From positions 1-64,000 of the IMG/VR virus record IMGVR_UViG_3300008012_000022: a stretch of 64,000 bases of DNA. One strand, given 5' to 3'. Source of the DNA: a virus. The position numbers and the translations under genes were made by a program. Every line of letters begins with the position of its first letter. The first letter of the stretch is position 1. Below the pieces are notes generated by a model. The model ran no database searches and was not told where the DNA came from. It saw only the letters and a program-made list of their open reading frames with translations. Shown here one piece after another: positions 1 through 61,306 of the stretch.

Positions 1-161
1 AAGGAAGGTTGCTTCACCCAGACGGCAATCGAAAATGATGATGTTCCGCCGAGTACATCCGGGATTTCGACGGAATCCGCTCCCGCAAAAGTAAACTCCC
101 GACTCGCGCCACCAAACGCGGGAACGCCAGCACCAAACCTATGTGAATTCGTTACCGTCAT
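1..161 (-). CDS. 5' part of a LamG/concanavalin-like virion protein, running off the window start
   Basis: ATG at 161 overlaps the stop of 158..1849; the open frame reads MTVTNSHRFGAG...SFSIAVWVKQ, and FSIAVWVK is LamG-like. Confidence 0.55.
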   Translation of the reverse strand, partial: MTVTNSHRFGAGVPAFGGASREFTFAGADSVEIPDVLGGTSSFSIAVWVKQPS

Positions 162-1849
162 GCTTTCGTTCCTATCAGGTAAATCTTGCCACCAGCCCCC
201 GCAACGGTTGAGCCTACCTGATCCACATCAATAGTGATTTCTGCGTCATCTGCTAAAACCGTGTCGGTTAATGTAGGTAAGGTAGCCGCTGTGGTGGAGG
301 TCTTCTCCGTAGCATCTATCTGGACTTTATTAGTCGTCATGATCGTGCTGCCCCCTTCATTAATATCAAATATTAGTGCCGCACCAGTTGGGGCAGTATC
401 CACACTGGCGCGAACTTCTGTAAGGTTCATTCCATAGGGCATTCTGAAAGTAGTCACTCCCGTGCCGGTTGCTAGATCTTCACCTTCATCACTAAGCGAT
501 ACCGCGATGGCATATAGCGTAGCATCAACCACGATGGCAATCTTGAGTCCCTGTCCCGCGATAGTACTTCCCACCTGATCTATATCTACCGTAATTTCAG
601 CATCGTCTGCAATGGCTGTATCAGAAATAACCGCCGCAGTTGCCGCAGTCTCGCTAGTTTTCTCGGTCGCATCTATGGTCAATTTGGTAGACAGAATGGA
701 AACCCCAGACTCGTTGATGTCCACCTGTATTGCTGCTCCGGTTGGTGCAGTGGTAACACTGGCTCGAACCTCTTTAACGGTACATGCATACGGTGCGCGA
801 AACGTCAGAGCTGCCGTGCCTGTTTCCAGATCAACATCTTCTGCACCAAGAGCAAAATGAAAAGTTTGCTGTGTTGTGACTTGAGAAACTGGTTGAAAAG
901 TTGGTGGCGATCCCGACCCATTACTTGTTAATACTTCAGTTGCGTTGCCTACCGTTACCGTTGTAGGTGCCCCAGCAGCATCCCATGTAATCAGTTCACC
1001 GTCAGTCCCGTTAGAAAGATCTTCTACATCAATATTTGATATAGAGTTGCCAGTTCCATTAGCATCAAAGGTTTTATTAGTTAACGTATCTGTTGAAAAA
1101 TCAGTAAGAAAATTGCCGGAATCAGTCTTCTGTAATGAATATTCCTCGATATGACCAGAATATGTTTCGTTCCAACCGATTTCCTCCAAATTACCAGAGT
1201 CAGCTAAGGTGAGGAAATTGCCAGAATCAGATTTATGTAGACTATATTCATCCAAATGTCCGCTTGCCGTAGCAACATACGCATCGGAGTATTCTTCGAG
1301 ATGGCCAGAAGACTGTATATTAAGAAGTTCCCCACTGTGCCATTTTGATAGAAAATTTCCTGAGTCAGAGGTTAATAATGTATTCTCTAAAACATGACCA
1401 GATAACGTTTCGTTCCAGCCTATCTCCTCTAAGTTGCCAGAGTCAGCTAGCGTAAGGAAATTGCCGCTATCGCTTTTGTGGAGTCCATACTCGTCGAGAT
1501 GTCCACTCGCCGTAGCAACATAAGCATCAGAATATTCTTCAAGATGTCCTGACGGAATTTCTCCCCAGCTTGCCCCACCGATTTGTTCGACAATATGACC
1601 CGAATTAACCTTATCCAATAAATTTCCTGAGTCAGATTTTTGCAATGAGTATTCTTCAATATGCCCAGAGTACGTTTCATTCCAACCATTCACACCTCCT
1701 ATATTACCCGAATCGGAAATTTTTAAAAACGGTAAATTCGTAATTAAGGCTCTGAACTCCGCTGTTCCCTCCGCATTATGACCTACAACATAATCCCCAG
1801 TATCAGGAGAAATGTCTTCAGAAAATTGAGTGAAATTTTGATCTGCCAT
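158..1849 (-). CDS. Tail fibre/virion protein with SGH/SGN repeats and a duplicated C-terminal beta-sandwich-like domain
   Basis: Repeats SGHLEEY/SGNFL; EVRASV.TAPTGAA...DINE.G...IDATEKTS...LADDAEIT.D.DQVGST occurs twice. Confidence 0.7.
   Translation of the reverse strand: MADQNFTQFSEDISPDTGDYVVGHNAEGTAEFRALITNLPFLKISDSGNIGGVNGWNETYSGHIEEYSLQKSDSGNLLDKVNSGHIVEQIGGASWGEIPSGHLEEYSDAYVATASGHLDEYGLHKSDSGNFLTLADSGNLEEIGWNETLSGHVLENTLLTSDSGNFLSKWHSGELLNIQSSGHLEEYSDAYVATASGHLDEYSLHKSDSGNFLTLADSGNLEEIGWNETYSGHIEEYSLQKTDSGNFLTDFSTDTLTNKTFDANGTGNSISNIDVEDLSNGTDGELITWDAAGAPTTVTVGNATEVLTSNGSGSPPTFQPVSQVTTQQTFHFALGAEDVDLETGTAALTFRAPYACTVKEVRASVTTAPTGAAIQVDINESGVSILSTKLTIDATEKTSETAATAAVISDTAIADDAEITVDIDQVGSTIAGQGLKIAIVVDATLYAIAVSLSDEGEDLATGTGVTTFRMPYGMNLTEVRASVDTAPTGAALIFDINEGGSTIMTTNKVQIDATEKTSTTAATLPTLTDTVLADDAEITIDVDQVGSTVAGAGGKIYLIGTKA
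1130..1700 (-). repeat. Intragenic diverged direct repeats encoding the SGH modules
   Basis: SGHLEEYSDAYVATASGHLDEY.LHKSDSGNFLTLADSGNLEEIGWNET occurs twice with synonymous changes; GWNETYSGHIEEYSLQK occurs twice. Confidence 0.85.
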
Positions 1850-1851
1850 AG

Positions 1852-9072: not shown

Positions 9073-10230
9073 ATGAGCACTTTTCAGTTAAACCAAACAG
9101 CCGAAGAAGTTAATAAAGCAATTTCAGGCTCATTATTGACGTTTGTTGACCCATGGGGTTATACTGGTAATATCGCAATTTACGGAGATTTTTACCAAAG
9201 CGGGTCAAAAGTTGTATTTTCCGACTTTCTACAGTCAGTAAATTCGGGACATATTGTAGACCAAATTAATGCGGTTAGTGGGTGGAGTTTAACACCATCT
9301 GGTCATCTTGACGAATATGCGTTGCACAAAACTGACAGTGGAAACTTTCTCGACAAACAGGATAGTGGTCGAATCAACCAATGGACCGAAACTGCGTCAG
9401 GACATCTTAACGAGTATGGGTTGCACAAAAGTGATAGCGGAAATTTCCTTCAAGATTTGGTTATAACGAATTTAACTGGTCCAGATGGTGTCCAACTAGA
9501 AAGTTCAGTTGGTGGGGGAAAAATTTGGTTACTTGATGTAACAGCTTATATAGGATCACCAGACAATGCTAACTATGCTGACTTCATGGATTCTGCTATT
9601 GTTTTCTCTACCGATTCAACTAATCGCCTTCAAATCGACGATAACACTATAACAGCCAGTTTACCTGTTGAAGTGCCTGATGAAGCTCTTACTTCGGATT
9701 GGGACAGTAGCACAGAAACTCCTACGAAAAATGCTGTATATGACGCTTTTATTACTACATCAGGTCATCTTGTATTAGACGAAGATGATATGGCATCATA
9801 TTCTAGTGGACAAGCGCCGAGTCAACAAAGTGTTGTAGAATATATCAAAGAACAAACTTATAAAACAGTTGGTTTAGCATGGCAATCCCCAACCTCTGAT
9901 GCTACCGTAGGAACTAAGAAGACTTATTTTGTCGTGCCACCATCTATGAGCGGTATGAATTTAGTTTTTGCTCATGCAGAAGTAGCTAATTCTGGCGTAG
10001 CGGGTGTCCAAACCTTTGATATAAATAAAAACGGATCTTCTATGCTATCAGGTAAATTGTATATTGATAGCACGGAATTAGGCAGTGATACTGCTGCGAC
10101 AGGCGTTATTATTGATACAACGAATCACACTGTTGTCACACACGATGTTATATCTGTAGACGTAGATTCTATCCACAGTTCTACTGCGGCACAAGGAGAA
10201 CTTGTTACGCTTGAATTTAGAACACCGTAA
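9073..10230 (+). CDS. Tail fibre/virion protein paralogous to 158..1849
   Basis: Shares VNSGHIV.QI and SGHL.EY.LHK.DSGNFL modules and a related C-terminal domain. Confidence 0.7.
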   Translation: MSTFQLNQTAEEVNKAISGSLLTFVDPWGYTGNIAIYGDFYQSGSKVVFSDFLQSVNSGHIVDQINAVSGWSLTPSGHLDEYALHKTDSGNFLDKQDSGRINQWTETASGHLNEYGLHKSDSGNFLQDLVITNLTGPDGVQLESSVGGGKIWLLDVTAYIGSPDNANYADFMDSAIVFSTDSTNRLQIDDNTITASLPVEVPDEALTSDWDSSTETPTKNAVYDAFITTSGHLVLDEDDMASYSSGQAPSQQSVVEYIKEQTYKTVGLAWQSPTSDATVGTKKTYFVVPPSMSGMNLVFAHAEVANSGVAGVQTFDINKNGSSMLSGKLYIDSTELGSDTAATGVIIDTTNHTVVTHDVISVDVDSIHSSTAAQGELVTLEFRTP

Positions 10231-13180: not shown

Positions 13181-13366
13181 AACCACTGGTGGTTCAATTG
13201 GTTCTTTAGTTGTTTCCAAAAGAACAATGCGTTCTTCCAGTTTACCTACATACTCATTGAGGTTCTTATTCTTCTCTTCAAGTTGCGCTACTTTATTTTG
13301 ACATTCTTTATCTGAACAAGAGGTCAGACAAAAAAGTATAATGGCGCATAATATATATTTGATCAT
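13169..13366 (-). CDS. Small lipoprotein with coiled coil and Pro-rich tail
   Basis: Lipobox LTSC. Confidence 0.65.
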   Translation of the reverse strand: MIKYILCAIILFCLTSCSDKECQNKVAQLEEKNKNLNEYVGKLEERIVLLETTKEPIEPPVVDPP

Positions 13367-14259
13367 GTTAATGCTATTGGTTTATATTCCCAAACGTTTT
13401 CTGTTTCTTCGATGCTTTCGAAATCTTCTTTAAGTAGATGATATCGAAAGAAGTTCTTCCATACTCTATGAGAGTTAACGAAGTGGCCTAACTGTTCATT
13501 ATCTTCGGTGCGAAGATGTTGCATGAAATTTTTCAGACCTTCAACGTTATCAGTTCCACAATAGTTTTCTACTTCAATATGGTTCGCCCAATGACGCATC
13601 ACCTGTCTTATGGTGTCTGCCCTCTCAATAATAGCTGGCGCAAGGGGATCGTCAGGGTCAACGCCTAAGTATAGATGGTTGGTGCGACCATAGCACCAAA
13701 GATATTTAGCTTCATGATCTATCTTGTTATCCACGGGGCGACCACCTTCTTCTCCGTCTCTAATGCGCCACGTATGTTCGTGTTCGTCTTCGCTGAAACT
13801 ATCTTTAAGATCAATAGATAGAGGGCGAACACCATGTAAACCCCAATGAGGACTGCCAAAGAAAACAAGCCCATCATGCCATTTAAAAGCGAATCCTTTT
13901 CCATAATTATAAATACTCTGCACCTTTTGCATAGCCAAACTATCTAAAAGCTTTGGTAATCCTTCAACCCATTCGGAATTGAATCGTTCCATGCTATCAC
14001 GCATGACAAACCAATCACCTTGTTCCATTACAGACTCGCGTAAGAATACATTCATCTGTAGGTCATGGTCGTTAGTCCACTTGCGCCGTAAAACTTCGCC
14101 GCACCCTTTGCGTTCTTCAAGAAGATCAAGTGTTTCCTGATCTGTTTTGTGGTCACATACCCATATCATCCCATCGAATACCTCATGGCACGGATCTGTC
14201 AGTGCTTTGAGGTTATCGAATTCGGATGACGTTATTCCACATAAATATACTTTACTCAT
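13363..14259 (-). CDS. Glycosyltransferase-like protein (GT-A)
   Basis: IWVCD...D.T.DLL, W..DH..QMN, WFVMRDSMER and PHWGL motifs. Confidence 0.6.
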   Translation of the reverse strand: MSKVYLCGITSSEFDNLKALTDPCHEVFDGMIWVCDHKTDQETLDLLEERKGCGEVLRRKWTNDHDLQMNVFLRESVMEQGDWFVMRDSMERFNSEWVEGLPKLLDSLAMQKVQSIYNYGKGFAFKWHDGLVFFGSPHWGLHGVRPLSIDLKDSFSEDEHEHTWRIRDGEEGGRPVDNKIDHEAKYLWCYGRTNHLYLGVDPDDPLAPAIIERADTIRQVMRHWANHIEVENYCGTDNVEGLKNFMQHLRTEDNEQLGHFVNSHRVWKNFFRYHLLKEDFESIEETENVWEYKPIALT

Positions 14260-17898: not shown

Positions 17899-18104
17899 TT
17901 GTTTGCTATTACTACGAATATACCAATTACGGCAATAAAAATAAAAGCGAGAGTCGTTGGAATCCATAAGGGGGCAGTCACCCACCACCATGACCAATCA
18001 ATCACATCTGTTAGTTTCAGATAAAGAAAGATTAAAAAAGTTCCAGTGCTTAATACACCACCACAACCAACATTTACAGTTCCATTTCCGCTATTATTTT
18101 CCAT
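17895..18104 (-). CDS. Small membrane protein (Fragile-X-F/TMEM185-like phage family)
   Basis: LKL..VIDWSWWWV.APLWI. Confidence 0.8.
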   Translation of the reverse strand: MENNSGNGTVNVGCGGVLSTGTFLIFLYLKLTDVIDWSWWWVTAPLWIPTTLAFIFIAVIGIFVVIANK

Positions 18105-18846
18105 AGATAATTTTAGGTTTTTGTTCGCCTGTCTTTTCGAAATAGTTATCGTCGAATTTCAATTGTTCGTCCTCCCACTTAAAACTACAGTGGCCAAAAT
18201 GCTTCTGTTGGTATTCAACTTTACGCTTACCAATCTCATCATTCAACCATGAATAATGATCGATCCATGCTATATCTTGTGGCACAGTAAGATTAGTTAA
18301 CTGTCGATAATCAACAAGTCCATTCGTTCCGATCCGATGATACGCCATATCATTATCCCATACAAAACGAGGACTAAAATCGCCATTATAATGAGTGGAA
18401 AAGATACGCGGAGGACAAAAAGGTTCCTCCATATAACTATCAGTATCGAAGATGTAATTCTTGAGACATAATTTATACCATGCAGCAGGATTATCCTGAA
18501 CGAACTGAACAATATTATTTATTTGTTCAGGGGTATAGATCTCGTCGCCATCTACCAACCAAATATAATCTACATTTGGTAATTGTTGAAGCGCCAAATT
18601 TCGCGCTTCGTGTTCCTGTATATATTCAGGACCGTCTACCAAACGAATTCGAAACTGATTATGACTATTTCTATAGCCACGAAGAATTTCCGTTGTGTTG
18701 TCCCGATAATCTTCTTGAGTAGAATACTCTGCGAAGGGAACCGAGACTGCGCTCACCTCAAAATCGGGACGCAGAAACGGCTCTAAAGATTTGTGCACAT
18801 AAGGCTCTACATTATATGCACAGAAAACTATTCCGAAAGTTGGCAT
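18094..18846 (-). CDS. Family 2 glycosyltransferase
   Basis: AYN.E.YV, D.T.EIL, RNLAL, WLVDGDEIY, HYSW. Confidence 0.85.
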   Translation of the reverse strand: MPTFGIVFCAYNVEPYVHKSLEPFLRPDFEVSAVSVPFAEYSTQEDYRDNTTEILRGYRNSHNQFRIRLVDGPEYIQEHEARNLALQQLPNVDYIWLVDGDEIYTPEQINNIVQFVQDNPAAWYKLCLKNYIFDTDSYMEEPFCPPRIFSTHYNGDFSPRFVWDNDMAYHRIGTNGLVDYRQLTNLTVPQDIAWIDHYSWLNDEIGKRKVEYQQKHFGHCSFKWEDEQLKFDDNYFEKTGEQKPKIIYGK

Positions 18847-37019: not shown

Positions 37020-37275
37020 AACTTTCTAAACTAAGATATGTTCTTTCGTGAATAATTTTAATCGGAATATCAAAAAAAGTTGGAAAAGGGACTCCAATCA
37101 ATCCCAACCCCTCTAACTCTGCTGTTCCTAAATGAAGCTCTTTAACTAACGCTGAAATAGGATAGTTTTTAAGAACAAAATTCGCACTAGCCAGACTGCG
37201 GCGATAAGAAACAAGAAAATCAATGATGCGATCAGCAACGCTAAAGTCCTTGACGTTTAATTTCGTTGTGATCAT
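37012..37275 (-). CDS. Hypothetical protein
   Basis: Coupled ORF. Confidence 0.5.
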   Translation of the reverse strand: MITTKLNVKDFSVADRIIDFLVSYRRSLASANFVLKNYPISALVKELHLGTAELEGLGLIGVPFPTFFDIPIKIIHERTYLSLESYG

Positions 37276-38365: not shown

Positions 38366-38504
38366 TATACAAAAATAAACACTCCGAGAAATATCCCCAC
38401 TACAAGGCTCTGCACAAGACCTTGCCACCACTCGTCACTAGTATTAAATAATACAAGATAAATAGGTACTGTTAACGCTAGTTGCTGCCAATAAGTAACT
38501 TCAA

Positions 38505-47521: not shown

Positions 47522-47978
47522 TCGGCAAAAAATTCTGGAAAAATACAATTATAATCCAGATATGGGAATCTTAATAGCGAAAGATTCTGCCAAAATTATT
47601 GGTGCTTTAAATACTAGTTCAAAATATTTACAAATAAAACTTGATGGGCAGCAACCCTTAGTTCATCGAATTATTTATTTTTTAGAAACAGGAGAACAAC
47701 CTGAAATTGTTGATCATATTGATGGTGATACTCGTAATAACCGTATTACTAATCTTCGCGCCTCAAACAACCAATTTAATCAAGCTAATCAAATTCAACA
47801 TAGGGGCTATTCGAAATATAAAGGTGTTTGTTTAGACCGTAAGTATTGGAAAGCTAGCATTCAATATAATAGAAAATCTATCCATATAGGCAATTTTAAA
47901 ACAGAATTAGAAGCAGCACAAGCTTACGATAAGAAAGCAAAAGAACTTTTTGGAGAACACGCACGCACAAATTTTTAA
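47511..47978 (+). CDS. HNH-AP2 homing endonuclease
   Basis: VHR, VDHIDGD..NNRI.NLR, SKYKGV, IG.F.TE.EAA.AYD..A. Confidence 0.9.
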   Translation: MIFDRQKILEKYNYNPDMGILIAKDSAKIIGALNTSSKYLQIKLDGQQPLVHRIIYFLETGEQPEIVDHIDGDTRNNRITNLRASNNQFNQANQIQHRGYSKYKGVCLDRKYWKASIQYNRKSIHIGNFKTELEAAQAYDKKAKELFGEHARTNF

Positions 47979-47979
47979 T

Positions 47980-49059
47980 ATGATTCTAGAAGCACCAATC
48001 AACCCATTGTCGATAGGCAATGTAAGTTATAATATTTTAAGGGAACTCCATCGAAGCGATTGTCGCGTCGATGGTATCTTTCCAGTCGGTAACAACTACG
48101 ATTTTACCGCTTATGAACCTGTTGACTCTGAACTGAGGCAATGGGCAGACGAAAGGAGAGCAAACGCCATAGAAAGATTGGCGCGGAAAACGCCTGTCCT
48201 GAAATGCTGGCACATTGGAGGATCAGAATCTAAACTGACTGATCATCAGACGCTACTAACCTTCTATGAGGTTGATGCCCCAACTAAAACTGAAATTGCT
48301 ATCGTGAAGTCAATGGACCACGTAGCTTTTTCCTCAAGCGAAGCTGCCGAAACTTTTAAAAGTTGTGGTTGTGATAATGTTTCACATGTTCCATTAGGTT
48401 TCGATGAAGACTTTGCAAGAGATCAAGAGGTAGTTCGGCGCGTCAACCAATGTCATTTTATTCTCGTCGGCAAGTTGGAAACACGCAAGAATACCCAACG
48501 CATTATTAAGTTGTGGTTAGAGAAATACGGTAACAATAACGATTACCAATTGACTTGCGTGGTCAACAATCCATTTTTCAAAAAAGAATTTTACACCCAA
48601 ATTGTGAATAACATATTGGGCGGCAAAACATGGTCTAATCTTAATTTTAAAGACCCTATCGCCACGAATTACGAGGTCGCTATGCTGCATAGGGCAGCAG
48701 ATATTGATTTAAGCGGAATCTCTAATGGTGAGGGGTGGGGTCTACCCGCGTTCAATAGCACGTGTCTCGGTAAGTGGTCGGTTGTATCTAATTGTTCCGG
48801 CCACTCCGATTGGGCGAACGAAGACAATTCTATTCTGATCGAAACCAATGGGAAACAGCCTTGCTATGATGGAATGTTCTTCCATGAGGGTCAACCATTC
48901 AATCAGGGGAGCTACCATCGCATCGAAGATGATGCAATTATTGATGGTATGGAGCGAGCGGTTGATAAGGTTGGAACTATTAATCAAGCTGGTCTTGATT
49001 TGGGGCGGAAGTTGACTTACAAAAATACTGTTGAACAACTATTAGAAAAATTGTCATGA
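47980..49059 (+). CDS. Family 4 (GT-B) glycosyltransferase
   Basis: VPLG.D, VGK.E.RKN, EGWGLP. Confidence 0.85.
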   Translation: MILEAPINPLSIGNVSYNILRELHRSDCRVDGIFPVGNNYDFTAYEPVDSELRQWADERRANAIERLARKTPVLKCWHIGGSESKLTDHQTLLTFYEVDAPTKTEIAIVKSMDHVAFSSSEAAETFKSCGCDNVSHVPLGFDEDFARDQEVVRRVNQCHFILVGKLETRKNTQRIIKLWLEKYGNNNDYQLTCVVNNPFFKKEFYTQIVNNILGGKTWSNLNFKDPIATNYEVAMLHRAADIDLSGISNGEGWGLPAFNSTCLGKWSVVSNCSGHSDWANEDNSILIETNGKQPCYDGMFFHEGQPFNQGSYHRIEDDAIIDGMERAVDKVGTINQAGLDLGRKLTYKNTVEQLLEKLS

Positions 49060-50148: not shown

Positions 50149-51267
50149 TTACCAACTAAGTGCAATTCGCGCCCAACCGCTATCATTTCTAGACCCCCAT
50201 CCTGTGCAGACGTACATATAATCGTCGTCCCACACAACTTGTCGTCTTCTACCCGTCGAATTATAATTGGTAGGCACAGTAACTCCTGAACCGAGTTGAA
50301 TATACTCTTTGACAAATAACTCTCCTGAGTCCGTAATGGCACCACAAAGTTCATCGTTGCCATTCTCTACTGACAGAGAATTTTCTCTGAAATACGCGTC
50401 GTTATCGCCAGTGTTATGGTAATCTCGACCAGAATCTATATCGTTGATTCTGAGGTTGAGACTGCTTCGGAATACTCCTGATGAATGGTGCTCTAATTCT
50501 GGCGCGAAAGTATGAAGAGTGAAGAAATTGTTGTATCCTGATGCTTTGATACGATCACCTGATGACATCAAAATATCGTTTTCCATTTGGATTTCACCAG
50601 TAATATTCTCTTCGATACTGTGTATCAATGAGTCATTGCTATCCCTCATATCTCCGAGGAATCTAGCTACTCCACTGAATGTTCCAGTTCCACCAACATC
50701 TAAATTGTTATTTGCGACAATATCGTGTCCGCTTATGAATAATTCTCCACCTGTTATCCACAACGCATCATCTAAATAAGTTTGGTTCTGTAAAAATATA
50801 CCCCCATTGAAATACATAGCGAGAGTATCATCACCCATATCTTCACCGATGGTGAACAGACTATCTTTCAATACCATAGCTCCTGTATGAAGGATATTAA
50901 TGTAACTACCTATAGCTGTAGAATAATCGCCGCTTACATCGTTACTTACTCCACCAACAATTGTATTATTTTTGCCAGTTATCGTTGAATTGGAAGACGA
51001 TACGATGGTATTATCTATTCCTCCTACGACATTATTTATGCCGTTAAACATGTGAGAACGATCATCAGTTGTCACATTATTACTAGAATTCGGAGTATAA
51101 ACAGATCCCCCGTTTAGTCCGAGAGAACCTGTTACAGTAAAGTCTCCCGTTAAAGATTCTAACAGAATGACATTAAAGAAGTCCACACCTTGATCAGTAT
51201 GGATATTTCCCGAAGGAACGTTCAAGGCGTAAGGCGTATATTGCCGTGGGTCTATCTTATTTTTCAT
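50149..51267 (-). CDS. Tail fibre-like virion protein
   Basis: Beta-helix-like N.IVGG repeats, C-terminal WDDDYMYVC...W.RIAL, SG/TG rich. Confidence 0.75.
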   Translation of the reverse strand: MKNKIDPRQYTPYALNVPSGNIHTDQGVDFFNVILLESLTGDFTVTGSLGLNGGSVYTPNSSNNVTTDDRSHMFNGINNVVGGIDNTIVSSSNSTITGKNNTIVGGVSNDVSGDYSTAIGSYINILHTGAMVLKDSLFTIGEDMGDDTLAMYFNGGIFLQNQTYLDDALWITGGELFISGHDIVANNNLDVGGTGTFSGVARFLGDMRDSNDSLIHSIEENITGEIQMENDILMSSGDRIKASGYNNFFTLHTFAPELEHHSSGVFRSSLNLRINDIDSGRDYHNTGDNDAYFRENSLSVENGNDELCGAITDSGELFVKEYIQLGSGVTVPTNYNSTGRRRQVVWDDDYMYVCTGWGSRNDSGWARIALSW

Positions 51268-52403: not shown

Positions 52404-54287
52404 ATGAAAATCCTATTCGTTTCCAACTTTTCTAAAGCTGTTACAGGGTTTGGAAAGAACATGAAGAATGTCCTTCGGGCACTTCATGAAGATCCGCGCT
52501 TCGAAGTAGTTGAAGCGGCGAACGGCTGTCTATATGGTGCCGATTTGAGGACACCATGGAAAAGCTATGGCACATTTCCATCTAATCCATCTGTGCGCCA
52601 AAAGATTGAGGCTAACCCTCATGAAAAACGGATGGCAGAGTATGGCAACCATACTATTGACGATATTGTTTACGCTGAGAAACCTGATATCATCGTCGGT
52701 ATCGAAGATATTTGGGCGTTCGATTGGGCCAAAAGGAAGTGGTTTAACGAAATACCTGTAGTTATCTGGACAACTCTTGATTCTTCACCTGTTTTACAGC
52801 AAGCGTATGATTTAGCGCCGAAGGTTGATAAATTTTTGGTGTGGGCATCCTTCGCAGAGAAGGAGATGAAAAAGAATGGAGTAGATAATGTTGAAACTAT
52901 ACACGGAGCTATTGATCTGTCACATTTCCATCCTTTGGAAGACGAAAAGCGCCAAAAATTACGAGAGCGTCATGGAATTGATGACTTTCTGGTGGGTTTT
53001 GTTTTTAAAAACCAGCTACGCAAGTCTGTCCCTAATCTACTGGAAGGTTTTAAACAATTTCAAGAAAAGAATCCTAACGCGAAACTGTTACTACATACCG
53101 ATTGGGTGGTAAGTGATAACACGTGGGACATTCCGCGCTATATCAAAGAGAAAGGTTTACACCCTGCTTCTGTATTAGCCACATATTTATGTGAAGGTTG
53201 TAAGCGTTACCAGTTGCTTCCATATACAGGGGAGAAGATTCGTTGTTCATGTTGTGGCGGCGAAGATACTCTTGTCACAAAGTCGAACATGTTTGGTGTC
53301 ACCGAACATGAACTGAACGAGATTTATAATATGATGGATGTATATTGTCATCCATTTACATCAGGTGGGCAAGAGCTACCTGTTCAAGAGGCTAAAGCTG
53401 CGGGTTTAACGACCTTAGTAACTGAATATAGTTGCGGCACAGACTGTTGCTATGAGAACATGGGAGGTCTACCGCTGAAATGGGTAGAATATAGAGAACC
53501 ATATACTCAGTTCATCAAAGCTACTACACTTCCAGAGTCTATTTGTGAACAGCTACAGAGAGTCAAAGATTTTACCGAAGAAGAGAAACAGATTATGAAA
53601 AATCGTTCTCTCAATTGGGTCGGACTTAACTTTTCTGTAAAAAGAACAGTTGAAAAGTTAACGTCCATCTTTGAAGAGTTTGGTAAATGCGAGTGGGATT
53701 TTAATCGTGAGGATAAATATTATGATTCAGACTTTGAACCAGATTCGGCGCTCCACGATACTGAATGGGTCCAATCTTTATACAAAGGAATTTTCGATAA
53801 GGATTTTGATGATTCACACGTAGAGGTTAAAGAAAGTCTACAAGTTATTCAACGCGAAGGTAGAGACAAGCTACATGAATATTTAAAAGCTGCGGCTAGA
53901 CAAAAGAATGCTGAAAAGAAAGGGCGCGAAACTTCTCTAGAGGATCTGTTAGATGGTAAGAAGCAAGACAGAATTGCAGTTGTTCTACCAGAATCCGCTG
54001 GAGATGTATTAATGTGTAATTCGCTACTATCGAATTTGAAGAAACTATACCCAAAGAAGGATATTTACTTTTTCACAAACCCTATGTTTTTTCCCATGGT
54101 AAATGCTAATCCAGCAATACACAAATTGATTCCTTATAAAGAAGGACTTGATAATCTTCTATTATTAGAGGGTCAAGGCAAGCATAGTGGCTACTTTGAT
54201 ATGGCATTTTTGCCACATGTAGGTTGCCAAAGAATACTAAATTATTTACATAATGGAAAACAACAACACCAATTCAGTCTCCGCTAA
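52404..54287 (+). CDS. Family 4 glycosyltransferase fused to a GT9-like N-terminal lobe
   Basis: TGFG, KNQ.RK, GGQELP..EA..AG; C-terminal SAGDVL....L..LK..YP. Confidence 0.85.
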   Translation: MKILFVSNFSKAVTGFGKNMKNVLRALHEDPRFEVVEAANGCLYGADLRTPWKSYGTFPSNPSVRQKIEANPHEKRMAEYGNHTIDDIVYAEKPDIIVGIEDIWAFDWAKRKWFNEIPVVIWTTLDSSPVLQQAYDLAPKVDKFLVWASFAEKEMKKNGVDNVETIHGAIDLSHFHPLEDEKRQKLRERHGIDDFLVGFVFKNQLRKSVPNLLEGFKQFQEKNPNAKLLLHTDWVVSDNTWDIPRYIKEKGLHPASVLATYLCEGCKRYQLLPYTGEKIRCSCCGGEDTLVTKSNMFGVTEHELNEIYNMMDVYCHPFTSGGQELPVQEAKAAGLTTLVTEYSCGTDCCYENMGGLPLKWVEYREPYTQFIKATTLPESICEQLQRVKDFTEEEKQIMKNRSLNWVGLNFSVKRTVEKLTSIFEEFGKCEWDFNREDKYYDSDFEPDSALHDTEWVQSLYKGIFDKDFDDSHVEVKESLQVIQREGRDKLHEYLKAAARQKNAEKKGRETSLEDLLDGKKQDRIAVVLPESAGDVLMCNSLLSNLKKLYPKKDIYFFTNPMFFPMVNANPAIHKLIPYKEGLDNLLLLEGQGKHSGYFDMAFLPHVGCQRILNYLHNGKQQHQFSLR

Positions 54288-54447: not shown

Positions 54448-54744
54448 ATGGACTTAAATGATCTAAACGATTTTTATCAAAGTATTAATAGAGATCCGTT
54501 GTATTTGATTAGCGACTCTATTATAATCGACAATAAAAAATCTGAACATTTTGGGAAAAGAGCTATAGAGATACGACATCCTAACGGACTTGAAGTTACA
54601 TTAAAGGTTGGGGATAAAATTGATTGGCCCTCAACCCTTAGCGACGAAGAAGAGACTAAAACGATCGTCGCAATCGAACATCTACGTCAATGTAGTTATA
54701 CCCTTAGAGATAATAAAGATAGAATTTGGGCAGTAATAGAATGA
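54448..54744 (+). CDS. Hypothetical protein
   Basis: Coupled ORF. Confidence 0.5.
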   Translation: MDLNDLNDFYQSINRDPLYLISDSIIIDNKKSEHFGKRAIEIRHPNGLEVTLKVGDKIDWPSTLSDEEETKTIVAIEHLRQCSYTLRDNKDRIWAVIE

Positions 54745-55874
54745 GCCATTTAGTAGAACTATACGCAAAAGATCTCGGTGTTAAGATAGGTGATCCTGTC
54801 TTACATCCACATTATTATCCAGTTCCTTATGAGAAGTATATTACTATACATACTTCTGACAAGGTTCCAGCAAAGAACTATAGCTATTGGAATACAGTGG
54901 TCAAGATCCTACGCAAATCATTAGGCGACATCAAGATTGTTCAGGTCGGCACCGAAGTTGACCCACCAATTGAAGATGTTGATTGCTTCTATAATAAAAC
55001 GACTTTTAATCAGAGTATGTTTATTCTTCAGCACTCGCTATGTCATGTAGGAATCGATTCGGTTCCTGTTCATCTAGCGGCAGCATTGGAGACACCAACC
55101 GTAACAGTATACGGACATACATACTCGACCACCTGTGATACCTCATGGGTGAATACAAAGCTTAGGCATATCCAACTGAATCCAAAGCGCGAAAAAGGTG
55201 AATGTCCATCATTCTCTCTGAGCGAACACCCTAAAACCGTTGATAGGATTTTACCTGAAAAAATTGCAGAGGCAGTTTTTAAGCAGTTGGGTATGTCCAA
55301 ATTTCAATCAGAAAAAACAGTTCATGTTGGGAGAAACTTCTTACATAAAACGATTGACGTAGTGCCAACCAATGAATTCTGTAATCTACCGAAGGTTAAT
55401 GATGCTGTGGTCAGACTTCGTATGGATCTAAATCATAGCGAAGTGGATATGCACACCATTCTTCAAGGTAGTCCTAACAGTTTTGAAGTAGTAACTAACC
55501 AGCCTATCAATACGCAACTTCTTGAAATGCGTAAACCACAAATTGAAAAGGTTGTTTACACGACAGATGAATTTGACGAACCATTCCTTGAATACCTTCG
55601 GAATTCAAATATTAAATTTGAACTGAATTCGACAAACCCCAAAAAGCTTGCCGAACAACGCAATAAGTTTTTTCACTTCGATATTGTTCTTGAAGTTCCT
55701 CCAGAAATCCCATCGAAGGTTAAAAAAGATGTGTTAAAGAAAAATGTTCAGTTTGATACGGGGAAAATATACCTCATAGGAGATAAAAGAGTCGTCACAT
55801 TAGCAAAAAGTTACGATTCTGATGAATTTTGGCTTGACGCAGAGTATTTTAGGTTCTATACTAACACAAATTAA
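54741..55874 (+). CDS. GT9 (heptosyltransferase-like) glycosyltransferase
   Basis: YITIH, K.Y.YW, VQVG, GIDS.P.HLAAA...P.V..YG. Confidence 0.85.
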   Translation: MSHLVELYAKDLGVKIGDPVLHPHYYPVPYEKYITIHTSDKVPAKNYSYWNTVVKILRKSLGDIKIVQVGTEVDPPIEDVDCFYNKTTFNQSMFILQHSLCHVGIDSVPVHLAAALETPTVTVYGHTYSTTCDTSWVNTKLRHIQLNPKREKGECPSFSLSEHPKTVDRILPEKIAEAVFKQLGMSKFQSEKTVHVGRNFLHKTIDVVPTNEFCNLPKVNDAVVRLRMDLNHSEVDMHTILQGSPNSFEVVTNQPINTQLLEMRKPQIEKVVYTTDEFDEPFLEYLRNSNIKFELNSTNPKKLAEQRNKFFHFDIVLEVPPEIPSKVKKDVLKKNVQFDTGKIYLIGDKRVVTLAKSYDSDEFWLDAEYFRFYTNTN

Positions 55875-55879
55875 GAATT

Positions 55880-56674
55880 ATGAGTACAACTAAGAAAGCT
55901 CCAACTAAGAAAGCTTCAACGAAAAAAGCACAACCGCTTCTCAAACGAGATAGTAATGGTTTGTTAGAAGGAGTTGAATACAAATTTGACGATGATGGAT
56001 TTATTGATTGGAGGGCAATGGTATCGCCTGATATGGTCTATCCTAATAAGGACTGGTTCGCGGCTCATAATAAGCCTGTGCCACCTGAGACTCCAGAAGA
56101 ACTAGCCAAACTAAAAGATAATCAGTTAGTTATTAAATTGGGTGGGTTGAAAAAATTGCTCCGACTTCGCGGCTATGATCGTGTTGAATTCGATATCAAC
56201 AATGTCGCAGAAGGACACGTAGTAGCTAGTGCATGGATCTCATTCGCGCCGAACTACGAAACTAATGGTGAGAAAGTCCACTACAACGAGGTAGCCAACG
56301 CACGAGACGACAACACAGATAGCTTCGGAGAGAAATATTTGGAAACATTCGCGGCTAACCGTGCATTTGCACGGTGCATCCGTAACTTTCTGAACATCAA
56401 CATCGTCTCTAAAGAGGAAATGGACCAGTCTAGTGGTAAGTCGCCATCATCATCGAGCAGTAATAATGATGCGCCTGCTTCATCAGGATTCACGCCTCAA
56501 GATTCCCTCAAGAATAAGGCTAACGAAAAAGGTTTTAACACCTTTCCTAAATTCCTACAAAGACTTCGCGACCTATGGGAAGAAGGAACCTACAAAAACG
56601 CAGAAGCTAAGAATTGGAAAGGTTTCAAAGATGTTCCTGCTAAAGATGCACGGACCCTTATCACCTTAATCTAA
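55880..56674 (+). CDS. Probable single-strand annealing protein (Rad52/Sak-like)
   Basis: I.L.GL..L, A.NRAF.RC.RNFLNI..V..EE, disordered linker. Confidence 0.55.
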   Translation: MSTTKKAPTKKASTKKAQPLLKRDSNGLLEGVEYKFDDDGFIDWRAMVSPDMVYPNKDWFAAHNKPVPPETPEELAKLKDNQLVIKLGGLKKLLRLRGYDRVEFDINNVAEGHVVASAWISFAPNYETNGEKVHYNEVANARDDNTDSFGEKYLETFAANRAFARCIRNFLNINIVSKEEMDQSSGKSPSSSSSNNDAPASSGFTPQDSLKNKANEKGFNTFPKFLQRLRDLWEEGTYKNAEAKNWKGFKDVPAKDARTLITLI

Positions 56675-59235
56675 AGGTTCTTAGAGTAAGCGTTCGCATA
56701 GTTAGGTTCCGAATTCACAATAGTAGATCCAACAATGGCACGAGACGATCCTAAATAGTCTCGTGCTATTGATTTATCTATTACAATAAATTTACGTGAA
56801 TCATATCCAATTGTTGTTGTAATACCTCCTTGAGCATTGATGCCCACAGAGATAGAACTAACACCCGTCTCTATATCAAAATCTGTACGCAATGGCCCAC
56901 GCTCATATCTTACTGTTGAACTGATTAATGGGCACGGTGTGGGAGGATTAAGTGTGCCAAAGTTTTCTAAAAATAGTTTTGCTTCAACAATACCCATGCT
57001 CATTACATCAAGAGATCGTTTGTAAAAACAGCTTTCTTGCGACTTTAAGTTTCGAATAAATTTAGGAGATCCTTTATCATGCATTGGGCTTTCTGTTGAC
57101 TCAGACCCACCTGTATTATCCGACTTAGTTTTGAAAAAGGGAACGAGTATATAATCATACTTTTTCTTTACAGCTTCTTGTAAAAGCTGTTCCATACTTC
57201 GTTCTAAAGACTGCATCATAGGACGGAAATCTTTAGTTCCCATCACAATGAATCCATGTTGAACACCAATACGTGATGGTATTGGGTGCTGAATCACTTC
57301 AAGATTCGTGCCAATATATCTAGCTGTATTAACAGGCATATTTGCAACATCACCCCCTACCGCTATTTTCTGAACAGCTATCATATGGTAATTGCTGCCC
57401 AAAATATTTGTATTAGCTCCACTTACAACAGGATTAAAACCAACTGGATTATCATCGATATCTAAATTGTCACCAACGTCATCAGCAGCACGTATTACGT
57501 TATTGACAGCAGGATCTTTTCGTACATTAGTATCGTCTGCCAATTCTTTGATCGTAATATTTGTTCTATGTTTCGCACGACGTAATATGCGAACTAAAAA
57601 ATCTAACTCAGGAATTTCTGAAATGAAAGCATCGGCTGGAGCGGCGAAAATTTGAACTTGTTGACCTCGTTTGGTAACTGAATTATATACTCTTGCCTCT
57701 GCCTCTTTTTGATTCATCGCATCGGATATATAAATTCCGCCAAATAGTTTAACGAAGTCTTCCATGTAAGGAATGTAATCATCCAACGGATCAATTACTA
57801 TGCCTCGTGTACTCACGCCTCCCCTCGGCGTATGTAAACTAGTTATTTCAACTGCTGTTATACCATCGTTCTTTATGTCAAATAAACCAGTAGAAGATCC
57901 AGCATCTATTGCGTCATCCCAAAAGTTTTTTATACGAGGATTGTTTTGACCTTCTGGTCTAAATAGTGTTGAGCTACCTACTTCGAAATCTCTATGGAAA
58001 CCTGTTAATACATCATTTCCCTCTCCATATAATTCTCCCCAATTTGCAGCATCAGATCCTTCATAGATCATTGTCCCATAAATATAGTAAGAAATTATTT
58101 TAGGCGAAATGCCTAATAATAGTAATGGAAGAAACTTATTTATATAACTCAACTCTTCTTCTGACAGTTTAGTTAAGTAGGTATCATTTAGACGGTATAA
58201 TTTATCTGTTCTTAAACGGGGTTCACTATCATTTTCCCCACCCGCCTCTTGATCTCTTTGATTAAGATCTCCTTTCAATACAACATGAGTAGCTTCAATC
58301 CCTTTGATAGATTGTGAGAATTGAATCTGAGAAGCACACGGCTCATTAAAATCTCCATGTTTGGCAGATATGTTAGCATTAATTTGTGCTACATCAGCAT
58401 TCGTCAAAATTTTAATTTGCTGAGTCATAGGATCAACATACCACGTCATTCCTATTTTACTAAGAACAGATGTTAATACGTCCCTCAGTGTTCCAGTGTC
58501 ACTAAATAATACATTGTTATCTTCTAAATATTTGGCGCTATCATCCTTGAACGACATACCGAGTTGAATCGTTAAGTCACGCAAGTCTGTAAGATAGTAT
58601 CCATATTCAACACTAACTTGTGATGGATCACCAAATCTCCAATTCACTGGAGGTTTCGTTGATATATCTTTTTGCCAAATCCCTTTATCGAATTTTAGAT
58701 AACCTGCGTCAGGTTCAAAGTTATAGTCTCGTGTGATAGGTGTTACATCTACATCATTAATTGTAGCTCGTGCAAAACCCATAAGGTTAATGCCGTTTTG
58801 AGAACGTTGTATTCGTGGGTAAACAGGAAGGTCCATATCTGGATGCCTGTGAGTTTGCCAATATTTTTCGGCTACAAAATAAGAACGAAAAGTCCAATAC
58901 AAATCTTCGTTTAATTCAGACTTGTGTGTACTATGTTCCCCATACAGAATAATTAATTCTTTATCAAGAATCTGATGCGTGTGTTCAACCAATTCAACTT
59001 GAAGATATTTGTAATTGTGTTTAACCTGAGTAACCTCCACTACATCCATAGCAAGACCAAAGGGAGGTAAATTAATAGTAGTATCAAACTCAGGAATTTG
59101 ATAATTCTGATTTTCATTTACCACTACAATTGTAGCTGTAGACGCTTGACTTGATGGTTGAAAATTGTAATCAATACTTACAATCTTACCACCAAACAAT
59201 TGCCCCAAATTCTTTTTTGCTAATACATCTGCCAT
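56671..59235 (-). CDS. Large tail/baseplate structural protein
   Basis: 854 aa; G.L..VL..V....G..WYVDP hub-like motif; structural operon. Confidence 0.6.
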   Translation of the reverse strand: MADVLAKKNLGQLFGGKIVSIDYNFQPSSQASTATIVVVNENQNYQIPEFDTTINLPPFGLAMDVVEVTQVKHNYKYLQVELVEHTHQILDKELIILYGEHSTHKSELNEDLYWTFRSYFVAEKYWQTHRHPDMDLPVYPRIQRSQNGINLMGFARATINDVDVTPITRDYNFEPDAGYLKFDKGIWQKDISTKPPVNWRFGDPSQVSVEYGYYLTDLRDLTIQLGMSFKDDSAKYLEDNNVLFSDTGTLRDVLTSVLSKIGMTWYVDPMTQQIKILTNADVAQINANISAKHGDFNEPCASQIQFSQSIKGIEATHVVLKGDLNQRDQEAGGENDSEPRLRTDKLYRLNDTYLTKLSEEELSYINKFLPLLLLGISPKIISYYIYGTMIYEGSDAANWGELYGEGNDVLTGFHRDFEVGSSTLFRPEGQNNPRIKNFWDDAIDAGSSTGLFDIKNDGITAVEITSLHTPRGGVSTRGIVIDPLDDYIPYMEDFVKLFGGIYISDAMNQKEAEARVYNSVTKRGQQVQIFAAPADAFISEIPELDFLVRILRRAKHRTNITIKELADDTNVRKDPAVNNVIRAADDVGDNLDIDDNPVGFNPVVSGANTNILGSNYHMIAVQKIAVGGDVANMPVNTARYIGTNLEVIQHPIPSRIGVQHGFIVMGTKDFRPMMQSLERSMEQLLQEAVKKKYDYILVPFFKTKSDNTGGSESTESPMHDKGSPKFIRNLKSQESCFYKRSLDVMSMGIVEAKLFLENFGTLNPPTPCPLISSTVRYERGPLRTDFDIETGVSSISVGINAQGGITTTIGYDSRKFIVIDKSIARDYLGSSRAIVGSTIVNSEPNYANAYSKNL

Positions 59236-59948
59236 TATAAAACGAAAACTTGTTTTTCATGTGGGAACACTTGCTCAATACAAGGTTCTAATCCCGTCTC
59301 AATGTTAGTTACTACACTTCCTAATTGTAGAAACTCTTCATCTGTTAATCTAATTCCATTCAAGTATGCCACAAACCCATTTCTATTATATGTTGTGGCG
59401 GTAATGTCATAAACTCCACTGTTATAAACATGTGGTCGATACGGCATAGAAAATAATATTCCTGTTATCCCATCTTCTGGATCAGTCCATTCCCATGTTC
59501 CATCCTCTTGAATAAAGAAAGATTCGCCACTTCCATGCACTAATTTCTGTCCGTTCAGAAATACTTGTTCATTGTTATCTAAATCTGCCACACCAGAAAA
59601 TCCAGAAATCACCTCTGCGTGAACATCATCCTCATAGAAGAAACGCCCCGAATCTGAAACCCAATCGTAAGTCAAATTACCATCTGTTGGCAGAAGATAT
59701 GCTTCACCTGTAGAATTTTTCAGTTGATATCCACTGAGAAAAATCTCGCCCGTATTATCATAGAAGGTCCGTAGCCCCGAAATTGTTACGATAGGTTGTG
59801 TCTCATGCAACACATCACCGTTCACCGCAATTTCAAGACGCATAGTTTCCACAGACGGAATTGAACCTTGCTCAGAGAATATGCTTCCCTGTTGATGGTA
59901 ATTTTCGCCGCTAAAATATTCGCCTGTATTGAGAATGATCTCTATCAT
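59235..59948 (-). CDS. Virion protein, SG/TG rich
   Basis: Repeated V.LNG motifs; 13 S/T-G dipeptides. Confidence 0.65.
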   Translation of the reverse strand: MIEIILNTGEYFSGENYHQQGSIFSEQGSIPSVETMRLEIAVNGDVLHETQPIVTISGLRTFYDNTGEIFLSGYQLKNSTGEAYLLPTDGNLTYDWVSDSGRFFYEDDVHAEVISGFSGVADLDNNEQVFLNGQKLVHGSGESFFIQEDGTWEWTDPEDGITGILFSMPYRPHVYNSGVYDITATTYNRNGFVAYLNGIRLTDEEFLQLGSVVTNIETGLEPCIEQVFPHEKQVFVL

Positions 59949-61306
59949 ATCCTTTTTTCTACGTAATATAGATAGTCTGGTTTGTATTGTTGTATTACAT
60001 CTTCTTTGAAAGCTAATGTTTCAAGGATATCGCCTGTTCTCAAGACTGTTCCTGCAAGATATTCTTTTTCATATCCTGTCGGTTGATCAAGTATAGCACC
60101 AGTTAAAGGGCGCATTTCATACAGTGGAATAGCACCTGTCAACTGGACAGAACGTGTGGCAACAATTGAATAACGTGTCACTAAATCACTTTGGTCAATC
60201 AAGCCACGAGTATCAAATGCTTGATCACCTGTTGGCGTATAATCATCAGTCTCAATTAAGAACGAAGTTTCCTCCATGTAATCTCCCAAAGAAGACGGTA
60301 AAGAATAACCTGTAAAAAATCGTTCACCATCTGTTCTACTTACACCAGTCTCTTCCTGTAGCGTAAACTCAATAAATTCTGAATCTCCCCATGTGTCTTG
60401 ATATCCAGTAAGCACAGGTTGATATCCTGTAACACCTGATCTTAAAATTAAGGTTATATCTTGACCAGTAATCACAGTATCCACCAATGACGCTCCACTA
60501 TTCTGAATCCCCGTCGCCACAAACCCACTCATAATAGGTTTCAAATCTGGCGCTGTATAAAATCCACTAATCACCATGAATTGATCTATGTATCCGCTTA
60601 AAGAATGGAACGCACTGCGATAAAACGTTGGTGATGCTCCGAGATAATAAGGTTCATCCTGACGATTGTTTTGAAATTGTCCGTTAGTGAACAATGATTG
60701 TTCATCATACGTATCGTCTGAAAGCTGATATCGCGCCACTGAGACGTTGTAAGGCGAGATAGATACCGAGAGCAGATTTTTATTTGCAAGCTCTATATCG
60801 TCCGCTGTGAGGCAAAATTCACCTTTCTCTTCGTTAATACCCTGAAAGAATACCTGATTACGGCTATTTAGTCCAATATTGAACCCACGACCGAAGACTT
60901 GACCGTCAGAATACTCATCTCTCACCAGCGAACCAAAGAGGATACCAGCATCCGTTTCCACTTTTTCACAAGAAAAAAGAAAGGTTAACTCTGTATTATA
61001 ATCTGTTTCTGAAACGTGGTCTTCTGCGAATGGCCCGAACTTTACATGAGAATACGACACGTCGCCACCTGACCTTTCATTTAACCGAAAGTTTTCAATT
61101 GTGTGTTGCGCGTTAACTTGTGTGCCGCCTGAGATTTGAACAACTCCTGTATATTGGCCAATAGTCGCCGCTGGTGCTGTATTTATCAGCGCCCCACTAT
61201 TTTGTGCCCCGTCTACTATAACCCCTGTATCATCGAAGTCGTAATAGAGTAGCACGGCACCAGTGCCCCCCTCAAGGTAAGCGTTAATTAAATTTCCTAA
61301 AGTCAT
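59945..61306 (-). CDS. Virion protein with a LamG-like domain and TG-rich stalk
   Basis: YYDF, YYLG, SGYIDQF; 22 S/T-G dipeptides. Confidence 0.65.
   Translation of the reverse strand: MTLGNLINAYLEGGTGAVLLYYDFDDTGVIVDGAQNSGALINTAPAATIGQYTGVVQISGGTQVNAQHTIENFRLNERSGGDVSYSHVKFGPFAEDHVSETDYNTELTFLFSCEKVETDAGILFGSLVRDEYSDGQVFGRGFNIGLNSRNQVFFQGINEEKGEFCLTADDIELANKNLLSVSISPYNVSVARYQLSDDTYDEQSLFTNGQFQNNRQDEPYYLGASPTFYRSAFHSLSGYIDQFMVISGFYTAPDLKPIMSGFVATGIQNSGASLVDTVITGQDITLILRSGVTGYQPVLTGYQDTWGDSEFIEFTLQEETGVSRTDGERFFTGYSLPSSLGDYMEETSFLIETDDYTPTGDQAFDTRGLIDQSDLVTRYSIVATRSVQLTGAIPLYEMRPLTGAILDQPTGYEKEYLAGTVLRTGDILETLAFKEDVIQQYKPDYLYYVEKRI

Follow-up and report, generated by a model that had tools for sequence, protein, structure and literature searches.

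We analysed a window of 64,000 nucleotides, the first 64 kb of the linear, 93,368-bp IMG/VR virus record IMGVR_UViG_3300008012_000022 (CheckV completeness 67%), which comes from an uncultured aquatic phage with many relatives. The window encodes predicted tail-tip and fibre proteins in which Gly is unusually often preceded by Ser or Thr (the dipeptide [S/T]-G, written [ST]G in counts), a block of glycosyltransferase (GT) genes of the GT-B fold beside the tail genes and, elsewhere, GT-A-like genes together with genes for a GDP-mannose 4,6-dehydratase (Gmd) and methyltransferases. The original prediction, made from this DNA alone, had read [S/T]-G as an O-glycosylation sequon for a virion coat built by these enzymes. 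Across the whole record, 114 non-overlapping open reading frames (ORFs) were called; the [ST]G count expected in each protein was derived from its own composition, with 5,000 within-protein shuffles per protein, and every ORF of at least 120 amino acids (aa) was screened for excess with a Poisson test. No cultured relative was found in INPHARED for the capsid protein, nor for the 453-aa tail-tip protein or the GT9-like protein described below.

The 4,456-aa ORF at 64402-77772 is the tape-measure protein, and because the ORFs of 514, 520, 453, 237 and 854 aa are transcribed after its gene, they are assigned by position to the tail tip or baseplate. The label of virion protein for the [ST]G-rich proteins is a prediction that rests on this position and on fold, and Pfam and PHROGs scans of the tail-tip proteins gave no matches. 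Seven tail-associated proteins carry a 2- to 3.7-fold excess of [ST]G (shuffle p ≤ 0.0004 for all). Three of them are tail-tip proteins encoded on the minus strand: the 237-aa protein at 59235..59948, where 13 of 24 Gly follow Ser or Thr (13 [ST]G against 3.5 expected), the 453-aa protein at 59945..61306 (22 against 7.4) and the 520-aa protein at 61303..62865 (15 against 5.7). The other four are a 372-aa fibre or spike-like protein (50149..51267, minus strand; 21 against 7.6), a 563-aa tail fibre (158..1849, minus strand; 26 against 12.1, with 18 within the first 250 aa), a 385-aa fibre (9073..10230, plus strand; 17 against 6.7) and a protein encoded beyond the window, at 79503-79970 (9 against 2.6). 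The four hand counts of the original prediction (13, 22, 21 and 18 in the first 250 aa) were all reproduced exactly, while the 520-aa protein, the 385-aa fibre and the protein beyond the window were not in its list. Its remark that replication enzymes show no obvious excess also held in the screen: p < 0.01 was reached by no further ORF of at least 120 aa in the record, 69 other proteins were free of excess, and the observed-to-expected ratio (O/E) of replication and nucleotide-metabolism enzymes was about 0.4-1.6. A small excess in the 101-aa ORF at 18846-19151 stems from the Ser-, Gly- and Asp-rich acidic tail of low complexity in which this ORF ends, and has nothing to do with the pattern of the tail proteins.

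In the five of these proteins that are not repetitive, Ser or Thr stands before about half of all Gly. Both dipeptides contribute, TG with 41 against 12.9 expected and SG with 39 against 14.0, which together make 80 [ST]G against 26.9. The excess has a direction, the reverse order being slightly depleted (19 G[ST] against 26.9, with GS 10 against 14.0 and the dipeptide GT 9 against 12.9), and it is specific to Ser and Thr, because [ND]G is not enriched (25 against 23.6, with NG 17 against 11.6 and DG 8 against 12.0). Since the codons that precede Gly are diverse (ACA, AGT, TCA, ACT, ACG and AGC), the signal lies at the level of amino acids and not of DNA. Mild preferences surround the sites, the residue before the Ser or Thr being hydrophobic in 47% of cases (background 35%) and the residue after the Gly aromatic in 23% (background 12%). 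As controls we used 32 T4 proteins (among them every baseplate, fibre, sheath, tube and head protein) and 29 structural proteins of Synechococcus phage S-CBS4. None of the T4 proteins, whose O/E ranged from 0 to 2.3, and none of the S-CBS4 proteins reached p < 0.01, and the idea that [ST]G is a generic trait of beta-rich phage tail proteins was therefore rejected. Internal repeats were likewise rejected as the whole cause: they account for two fibres, but not for the five other proteins, which show no BLAST paralogy.

In the AlphaFold2 (AF2) model of the 453-aa protein (mean predicted local distance difference test (pLDDT) 75), residues 10-264 fold as a lectin-like jelly roll of the ConA/LamG kind and the C-terminal half is beta-rich. 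The best fold matches, at a Z-score of about 16, are the carbohydrate-binding domain of an arabinanase and the tailspike of cyanopodophage Pan3. The 372-aa protein, with a beta-roll-like N-terminal part (Pfam LbR_Ice_bind match below cut-off), is encoded inside the GT-B block on the opposite strand, a position that is kept in relatives. In the 563-aa fibre, whose C-terminal part matches tail-fibre PHROGs, the N-terminal 250 aa hold about 17 tandem units of 9-17 aa, each opening with SG and of the type SGH-hydrophobic-x-E-Y or S-D-SGNFL; the 385-aa fibre is its paralogue (32% identity by BLASTP), with about 10 SG-initiated tandem units of 9-17 residues. As tandem repeats generate them, the SG counts of these two fibres are not independent events. 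Three of the nine CCGG sites that survive in the record (465, 738 and 1116) lie within the gene of the 563-aa fibre, at NCC-GGN codon pairs, a hint that this gene is a later acquisition than the remainder of the genome.

The bias is conserved across relatives. For the 453-aa protein 53 homologues were found, and the 29 that were aligned all have an O/E of 2.2-3.9. Of the 22 sites, 16 recur in 20 or more of these 29 sequences, and where a site is conserved, Gly nearly always follows Ser or Thr, down to 28% identity. The two most divergent homologues (28-29% identity) carry 24 and 27 sites, of which 10-12 fall in shared columns. Site density thus appears to be kept while the positions partly turn over, an appearance to which alignment error at this level of identity may contribute. 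The 237-aa family (alignment A9) has 8 shared columns and 9-17 sites per member, and the median O/E is 2.2 in the 520-aa family (range 0.59-2.82) and 2.29 in the 372-aa family. Altogether 327 IMG/VR contigs encode a homologue of the GT9-like protein, and among the 1,220 ORFs of the GT9-like loci surveyed on the best 80 of them, 100 passed a threshold of p < 1e-3, all of tail type. These are homologues of the 453-aa (27), 520-aa (24), 372-aa (21) and 237-aa (7) proteins, and a further 21 tail-like ORFs in 11 clusters that have no BLAST match to the phage of the window, some of them remote positional homologues. Enzyme families in the same loci have an O/E of 0.4-1.1. In distant GT9-bearing phages, tail ORFs of about 1,000 aa (L105:14452-17442, L106:14452-17463 and L107:5194-8205) with 51-53 [ST]G against 23 expected carry a long Pro/Ser/Thr-rich linker near the N-terminus.

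Beside the tail-tip genes stands the GT-B block, of which the part at 51246-56674 adjoins them in 17-18 of 21 related IMG/VR loci. It contains a 627-aa GT4-like enzyme of the GT-B fold with an extra C-terminal domain (52404..54287, plus strand), which matches PF00534 at 22.3 bits, below the cut-off of 26.4; its neighbour clusters in the viral Atlas carry PF00534, and tblastn links it to annotated phage group-1 glycosyltransferases (E 3e-9). Present at 45-60% identity in 17 of the 21 relatives, it is a core gene of the clade, and its GT4-like domain holds an invariant CxxC...CxxC insertion (C263, C266, C281 and C284). Some related viral clusters have DUF4214 at the C-terminus.

The 382-aa GT9-like protein (54726..55874, plus strand) matches PF01075 at 36 bits (cut-off 22), over 46 residues only. 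In its AF2 model (pLDDT 81), residues 23-192 form the GT9-type nucleotide-sugar-binding C-lobe, a Rossmann domain, for which VIA-align gave Z-scores of 15.9 with WaaF (1psw), 15.9 with a Veillonella GT9 (3tov), 15.7 with WaaC (2h1h) and 14.8 with TibC. The matches to WaaF, 3tov and WaaC (root-mean-square deviation about 3 Å over about 150 residues) lie about 4 Z above other GT-B folds (about 11.9). The C-lobe starts at about residue 23. The acceptor-binding N-lobe, which canonically comes first, is missing from the N-terminus, and the rest of the chain (residues 193-382) folds into a second alpha/beta domain, covered by none of the structural matches listed. A split GT9, with its N-lobe fused to the upstream 627-aa protein, was considered and set aside: the GT9 N-lobe-like stretch in the C-terminal domain of that protein matches at chance level (E 0.14) and gave no match in a Pfam scan, which leaves it as a lead.

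The block further includes a 369-aa GT1/GT4-like enzyme (47950..49059, plus strand), which matches the glycosyltransferase family phrog_2170 (E 1.5e-12) and, below the cut-off of 26.4, PF00534 (20.2 bits), and shares 52% identity with the homologue encoded by G012, a complete relative. It ends with a conserved 264-aa protein (55880..56674, plus strand) that occurs at 40-46% identity in 18 of 21 relatives and matched nothing in Pfam, PHROG and PDB searches, a profile search included. Single-sequence PDB searches of the GT-B proteins returned nothing significant. With 45-60% identity, the block is better conserved than the tail proteins (24-47%), and the GT4-like/GT9-like pair occurs in every relative long enough to judge among the 21 tail-protein loci, the rest being too short.

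Several smaller genes accompany the block. Between the GT4-like and GT9-like genes lie about 440 bp (54287-54726) with small ORFs at 54253-54444 and 54448-54744; in relatives the two genes abut or overlap, as at L022:16381-18114 and 15273-16394. The plus-strand block opens with a 205-aa ORF at 46904-47521 that matches a phage sigma factor (phrog_351, E 9e-11), and its product may regulate the block or the late genes. Paralogous HNH-AP2 homing-endonuclease-like genes (38% identity) at 45483-46046 and 47511-47978 flank the strand-switch region, and one of the two sits directly before the GT1-like gene.

The GT-A-like genes of the window lie on the minus strand. The 298-aa protein at 13363..14259 does not reach E 0.01 with PF00535, and its family profile (alignment A5) is nearest to SunS (7msn, E 5e-5, positions 7-219), GmaR (22ao, E 4e-4) and a ThuS-like enzyme (7msk, E 1e-3). 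Two GT2 enzymes match PF00535 above the cut-off of 23.3 bits, the 250-aa protein at 18094..18846 (36.1 bits), whose profile also matches 5tz8/5tze (E 1e-4), and the 315-aa protein at 40458..41405 (37.2 bits). Two more ORFs, of 259 aa (10832-11611) and 299 aa (11808-12707), had no Pfam, PHROG or PDB match and are called GT-A-like by synteny: the closest relative, L035, has five contiguous GT-A-like genes directly after its GT9-like gene (11173-15292), and homologues of this island are scattered in the window at 10832-14259, 18094-18846 and 40458-41405. The profiles of 10832-11611 and 40458-41405 found no solved relative. The tally of about eight glycosyltransferases in the original prediction is therefore fair, six being recognised by similarity and two by synteny only.

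The predicted Gmd was confirmed at 37241..38431 (minus strand; PF16363, 323 bits). It is the only epimerase/dehydratase of the short-chain dehydrogenase/reductase type in the record and in G012, and no 4-reductase was found. Of the two methyltransferases that had been named, the FkbM methyltransferase (39445-40275, minus strand) matches PF05050 at 31 bits against a cut-off of 22.7, while the class-I methyltransferase-like gene at 38813-39457 (minus strand) is a weak assignment, with FtsJ and Methyltransf matches below their cut-offs. The GT-A genes vary between relatives, and G012 lacks the Pfam GT2 match and keeps Gmd and the GT-B block. Near the 298-aa GT-A-like gene, at 14506-17097, a nicotinamide phosphoribosyltransferase gene stands beside a gene for a phosphoribosyl-pyrophosphate-synthetase-like protein, forming a phage NAD salvage pair.

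The analysis establishes that the bias exists, that it is specific and conserved, that the GT block is syntenic with the tail genes and which folds the enzymes have. On these grounds we propose, at a probability of about 0.42, that [S/T]-G is a clade-wide glycosylation acceptor tag on tail-tip proteins, fibres and perhaps a small tail-shaft protein. In the host cytoplasm, either ahead of tail assembly or in its course, soluble phage GTs would put a sugar on the Ser or Thr hydroxyl, and at a loop-to-strand junction the Gly that follows would leave space for the enzyme. For the constant steps directed at protein, the GT-B genes beside the tail genes would be the best candidates, namely the GT4-like enzyme with its Cys4 ribbon and the GT9-like enzyme with its non-canonical second domain, with the SunS/GmaR-like GT-A enzyme as a further candidate; extension and diversification of the glycan would fall to the variable GT-A genes, Gmd and the FkbM methyltransferase. 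We infer from this ensemble the sugar attachment itself, the chain-starting enzyme and the identity of the glycan, for which Gmd together with the FkbM methyltransferase suggests a methylated deoxysugar.

Several observations argue for such a tag. Side-chain turn capping (Asx- and ST-turns) is served by Asn and Asp as well as by Ser and Thr, unlike the enrichment seen here, which is of Ser and Thr only. The hydroxyl is conserved, the density of sites is kept, the bias spans the clade in tail proteins unrelated by BLAST, and the controls are clean. The GT pair is found in all relatives that are long enough, adjoins the tail-tip genes and has a fibre gene inside its block. The kinship of the enzymes points partly to protein substrates, with the family of 13363-14259 near SunS and GmaR and the C-lobe of the GT9-like protein matching WaaF, WaaC and TibC. 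The sequon of the original prediction is supported in part only: the bias is real, specific to Ser and Thr, conserved in the clade and confined to tail-tip and fibre proteins with a GT set adjacent, but it is about equal with 0, 1 or 5 GT-A genes nearby. The correlation between GT-A count and O/E is weak (rho 0.31-0.35, p 0.02-0.03, for 10-kb flanks only and uncorrected for phylogeny), and a correlation with GT number cannot discriminate between readings, because no relative was found without the GT4-like/GT9-like pair. A more detailed version we regard as less likely than not: that a clade of at least 327 IMG/VR contigs writes an [S/T]-G code in the outer proteins of its tails, that a rearranged GT9-like enzyme and a Cys4-bearing GT4-like enzyme read it and hyper-O-glycosylate the tail in the cytoplasm in the manner of TibC, and that interchangeable islands of GT-A genes, Gmd and the methyltransferases vary a serotype-like coat of sugar on the apparatus for host recognition.

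Virion glycosylation by phage enzymes is in itself already known (Freeman et al. 2023, cited in PMC12582341). Freeman and colleagues reportedly described in 2023 that GTs of the mycobacteriophages Che8, Corndog and Myrna modify capsid and tail-tube subunits. To our knowledge, it has been documented by experiment for a few actinobacteriophages, with no simple acceptor rule known, and we found no paper that describes an [S/T]-G tag of tail proteins. As in the mycobacteriophages, where phage GTs act in the cytoplasm on structural proteins of the phage itself, the GT genes of the present clade are linked to structural genes (in 17-18 of 21 relatives). The differences are that capsid and tail-tube subunits are modified there whereas the capsid protein has no bias here, that no dipeptide sequon is known to have been reported there, that the enzymes are unrelated and that the hosts are Actinobacteria.

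Enzymes of the SunS, ThuS-like and GmaR type, the nearest solved structures to the family of 13363-14259 (E 5e-5 to 1e-3), transfer sugar straight from nucleotide sugars to Ser, Thr or Cys residues of proteins that are folded or short. In the glycocin acceptors Ser18 of glycocin F and Cys22 of sublancin, Gly comes next. The similarity is, however, modest and covers the general GT-A catalytic domain only, and because it belongs to the variable GT-A set and not to the core pair, the 13363-14259 enzyme cannot alone explain a clade-wide bias. Chlorovirus PBCV-1 is generally known to combine viral GTs, a GDP-mannose 4,6-dehydratase and a sugar methyltransferase in the cytoplasmic synthesis of a virion-protein glycan, but in that case a eukaryotic virus bears an N-linked glycan on its major capsid protein, and the only sequence link to the phage GTs is a chance-level match of B736L (E 0.15). 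The analogy to animal proteoglycans that the original prediction had drawn does not carry further than the Ser-Gly core of the acceptor: xylosylation there depends on a Golgi GT14 xylosyltransferase, requires acidic flanks and uses Ser only, and no related enzyme was identified in the phage.

The GT9 relatives WaaC and WaaF resemble the phage GT9-like protein in the PF01075 match above cut-off and in the best structural matches (Z 15.7-15.9, residues 23-192), but the phage protein lacks their N-terminal acceptor lobe and has a different domain of 190 residues after the C-lobe. The bacterial autotransporter heptosyltransferases (BAHT; TibC and AAH, with the acceptors TibA and AIDA-I) are GT-B enzymes of the same WaaC/GT9 kind (Z 14.8 between TibC and the phage C-lobe), and they hyper-glycosylate a beta-solenoid surface protein on many turn Ser. 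TibC, a direct precedent for such a tag, is a cytoplasmic WaaC-like enzyme that heptosylates many Ser at the beta-helix turns of TibA, the mapped Ser-313 standing in N-S-G-G, and the hallmarks of BAHT are an N-terminal beta-barrel, a thumb in the form of a beta-hairpin and a Cys4 iron finger inside the catalytic domain (PMC4358343). A Cys4 finger is also present in the phage, but in the neighbouring GT4-like protein; neither the beta-barrel, nor the thumb, nor an in-chain iron finger is seen in the GT9-like protein, with which TibC aligns over its C-lobe only (205-392), tied with the lipopolysaccharide (LPS) enzymes WaaF and WaaC. Moreover, BAHT modify Ser only, while Thr is as frequent as Ser at the phage sites, no ADP-heptose pathway genes were found in the phage, and the candidate phage acceptors are not autotransporters.

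The strongest alternative is that [S/T]-G is a structural idiom, a lineage-specific strand-initiating or beta-bulge motif that also opens fibre-shaft repeats and that was passed down and multiplied among the tail proteins of the clade. The GTs would then have no part in it and would, during infection, alter the glycans of the host envelope (LPS core, O-antigen or capsule), which might, for instance, keep out superinfecting phages or spare progeny from adsorbing again. We hold this to be a serious possibility, only somewhat less likely than a glycosylation tag. The facts that speak for it weigh against a glycosylation tag. In the model of the 453-aa protein, most [ST]G sites lie at loop-to-strand junctions, at the N-terminal ends of strands, or within two very long strands; motifs such as T-G-Y recur at a spacing of 7 residues (293, 300); SG opens every tandem repeat in both fibres; and Gly is as strongly conserved as Ser/Thr. 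The excess is confined to tail-tip and fibre proteins: the capsid protein is not enriched (3 [ST]G against 2.4 expected), nor is the 854-aa tail family (O/E 0.79), and the Dit-like tail family beside the tail-tip genes is depleted (median O/E 0.53). Of the 80 GT9-like loci, 26 have no ORF at p < 1e-3, the 520-aa homologue in G012 has a single site although the GT pair is present, and S-CBS4 carries GT and methyltransferase genes within its head module and yet shows no bias. The acceptor cannot be read from the fold of a GT: GT9, Gmd and FkbM are generally known as classic enzymes of LPS and O-antigen synthesis, and the GT2 enzyme at 18094-18846 is nearest to 5tz8/5tze, which we take to be TarS, a teichoic-acid glycosyltransferase. 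Finally, the tag and the GT pair co-occur in one clade only and are thus not phylogenetically independent.

A structural idiom fits less well with other observations. The tail, baseplate and fibre proteins of T4 and S-CBS4 do without a similar bias, and the usual turn dipeptides [N/D]-G are not enriched. The bias appears in several families unrelated by BLAST and in a LamG fold, which elsewhere needs none, and the positions of the sites turn over while their density is kept. As for host-glycan remodelling, the Pfam scans of the window revealed neither a flippase nor a polymerase, ligase or lipid-carrier transferase, and while genes acting on the host surface tend to be accessory, the GT-B pair belongs to the core and exceeds the tail proteins in conservation.

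It is improbable that the hydroxyl serves another purpose, in a different modification such as phosphorylation or acylation or, in lectin-like receptor-binding proteins, as part of a recurrent motif for ligand contact, with the GTs directed at another target. The specificity for Ser and Thr and their conservation do point to the hydroxyl, and the 453-aa protein has a domain like a carbohydrate-binding module; on the other side, the surroundings of the tail genes yielded no kinase and no acyltransferase, and the sites appear to be spread along whole proteins and not over one binding face.

Two further explanations involve the DNA itself, which is under a marked constraint. The record holds 3 CCNGG sites against 141 expected, 9 CCGG against 141 and no CCWGG against 85, and G012 has none of the three; the avoidance is common to most relatives, though not to some (L095, L098, L099 and L101). 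Because CCNGG and CCGG are avoided, Pro-Gly (CCN GGN) is nearly absent from the proteome (2 against about 70 expected). That the GTs glycosylate phage DNA with hypermodified bases, the protein bias being unrelated, has a precedent in the GT-B enzymes of T-even phages, which are generally known to glucosylate DNA, but it is very unlikely, because neither the record nor G012 yielded a thymidylate-synthase-like hydroxymethylase, which speaks against glycosylated hydroxymethyl-pyrimidine DNA, and the genome relies on the avoidance of sites: so extreme an avoidance of CCGG and CCNGG would be less necessary were cytosines shielded, and no DNA-sugar pathway known so far comprises as much as eight GTs, Gmd and a sugar methyltransferase. 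The notion that [ST]G is a by-product of the DNA constraint, the banned Pro-Gly having been replaced by Ser/Thr-Gly (one base change turns Pro into Ser or Thr) or a DNA motif having been repeated, is effectively refuted by the diversity of the codons before Gly, by magnitude (the five proteins have about 53 [ST]G in excess, but an expectation of 4.4 Pro-Gly) and by the relatives L098, L099, L101, L103 and L111-L114, which do not avoid CCNGG and still have [ST]G-rich tail ORFs.

Even if [S/T]-G is a structural idiom, the dipeptide is an unusually strong and clean signature by which the clade's tail-tip and fibre proteins, left without annotation by Pfam and PHROGs, can be recognised. If it is a glycosylation tag, glycosylated tail proteins would be predictable from sequence in hundreds of environmental phage genomes, and besides BAHT there would be a second branch of the GT9 fold that is directed at proteins. 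Aquatic phages might then depend on a glycan of their own making for host recognition, for adsorption and for resistance to proteases or grazers.

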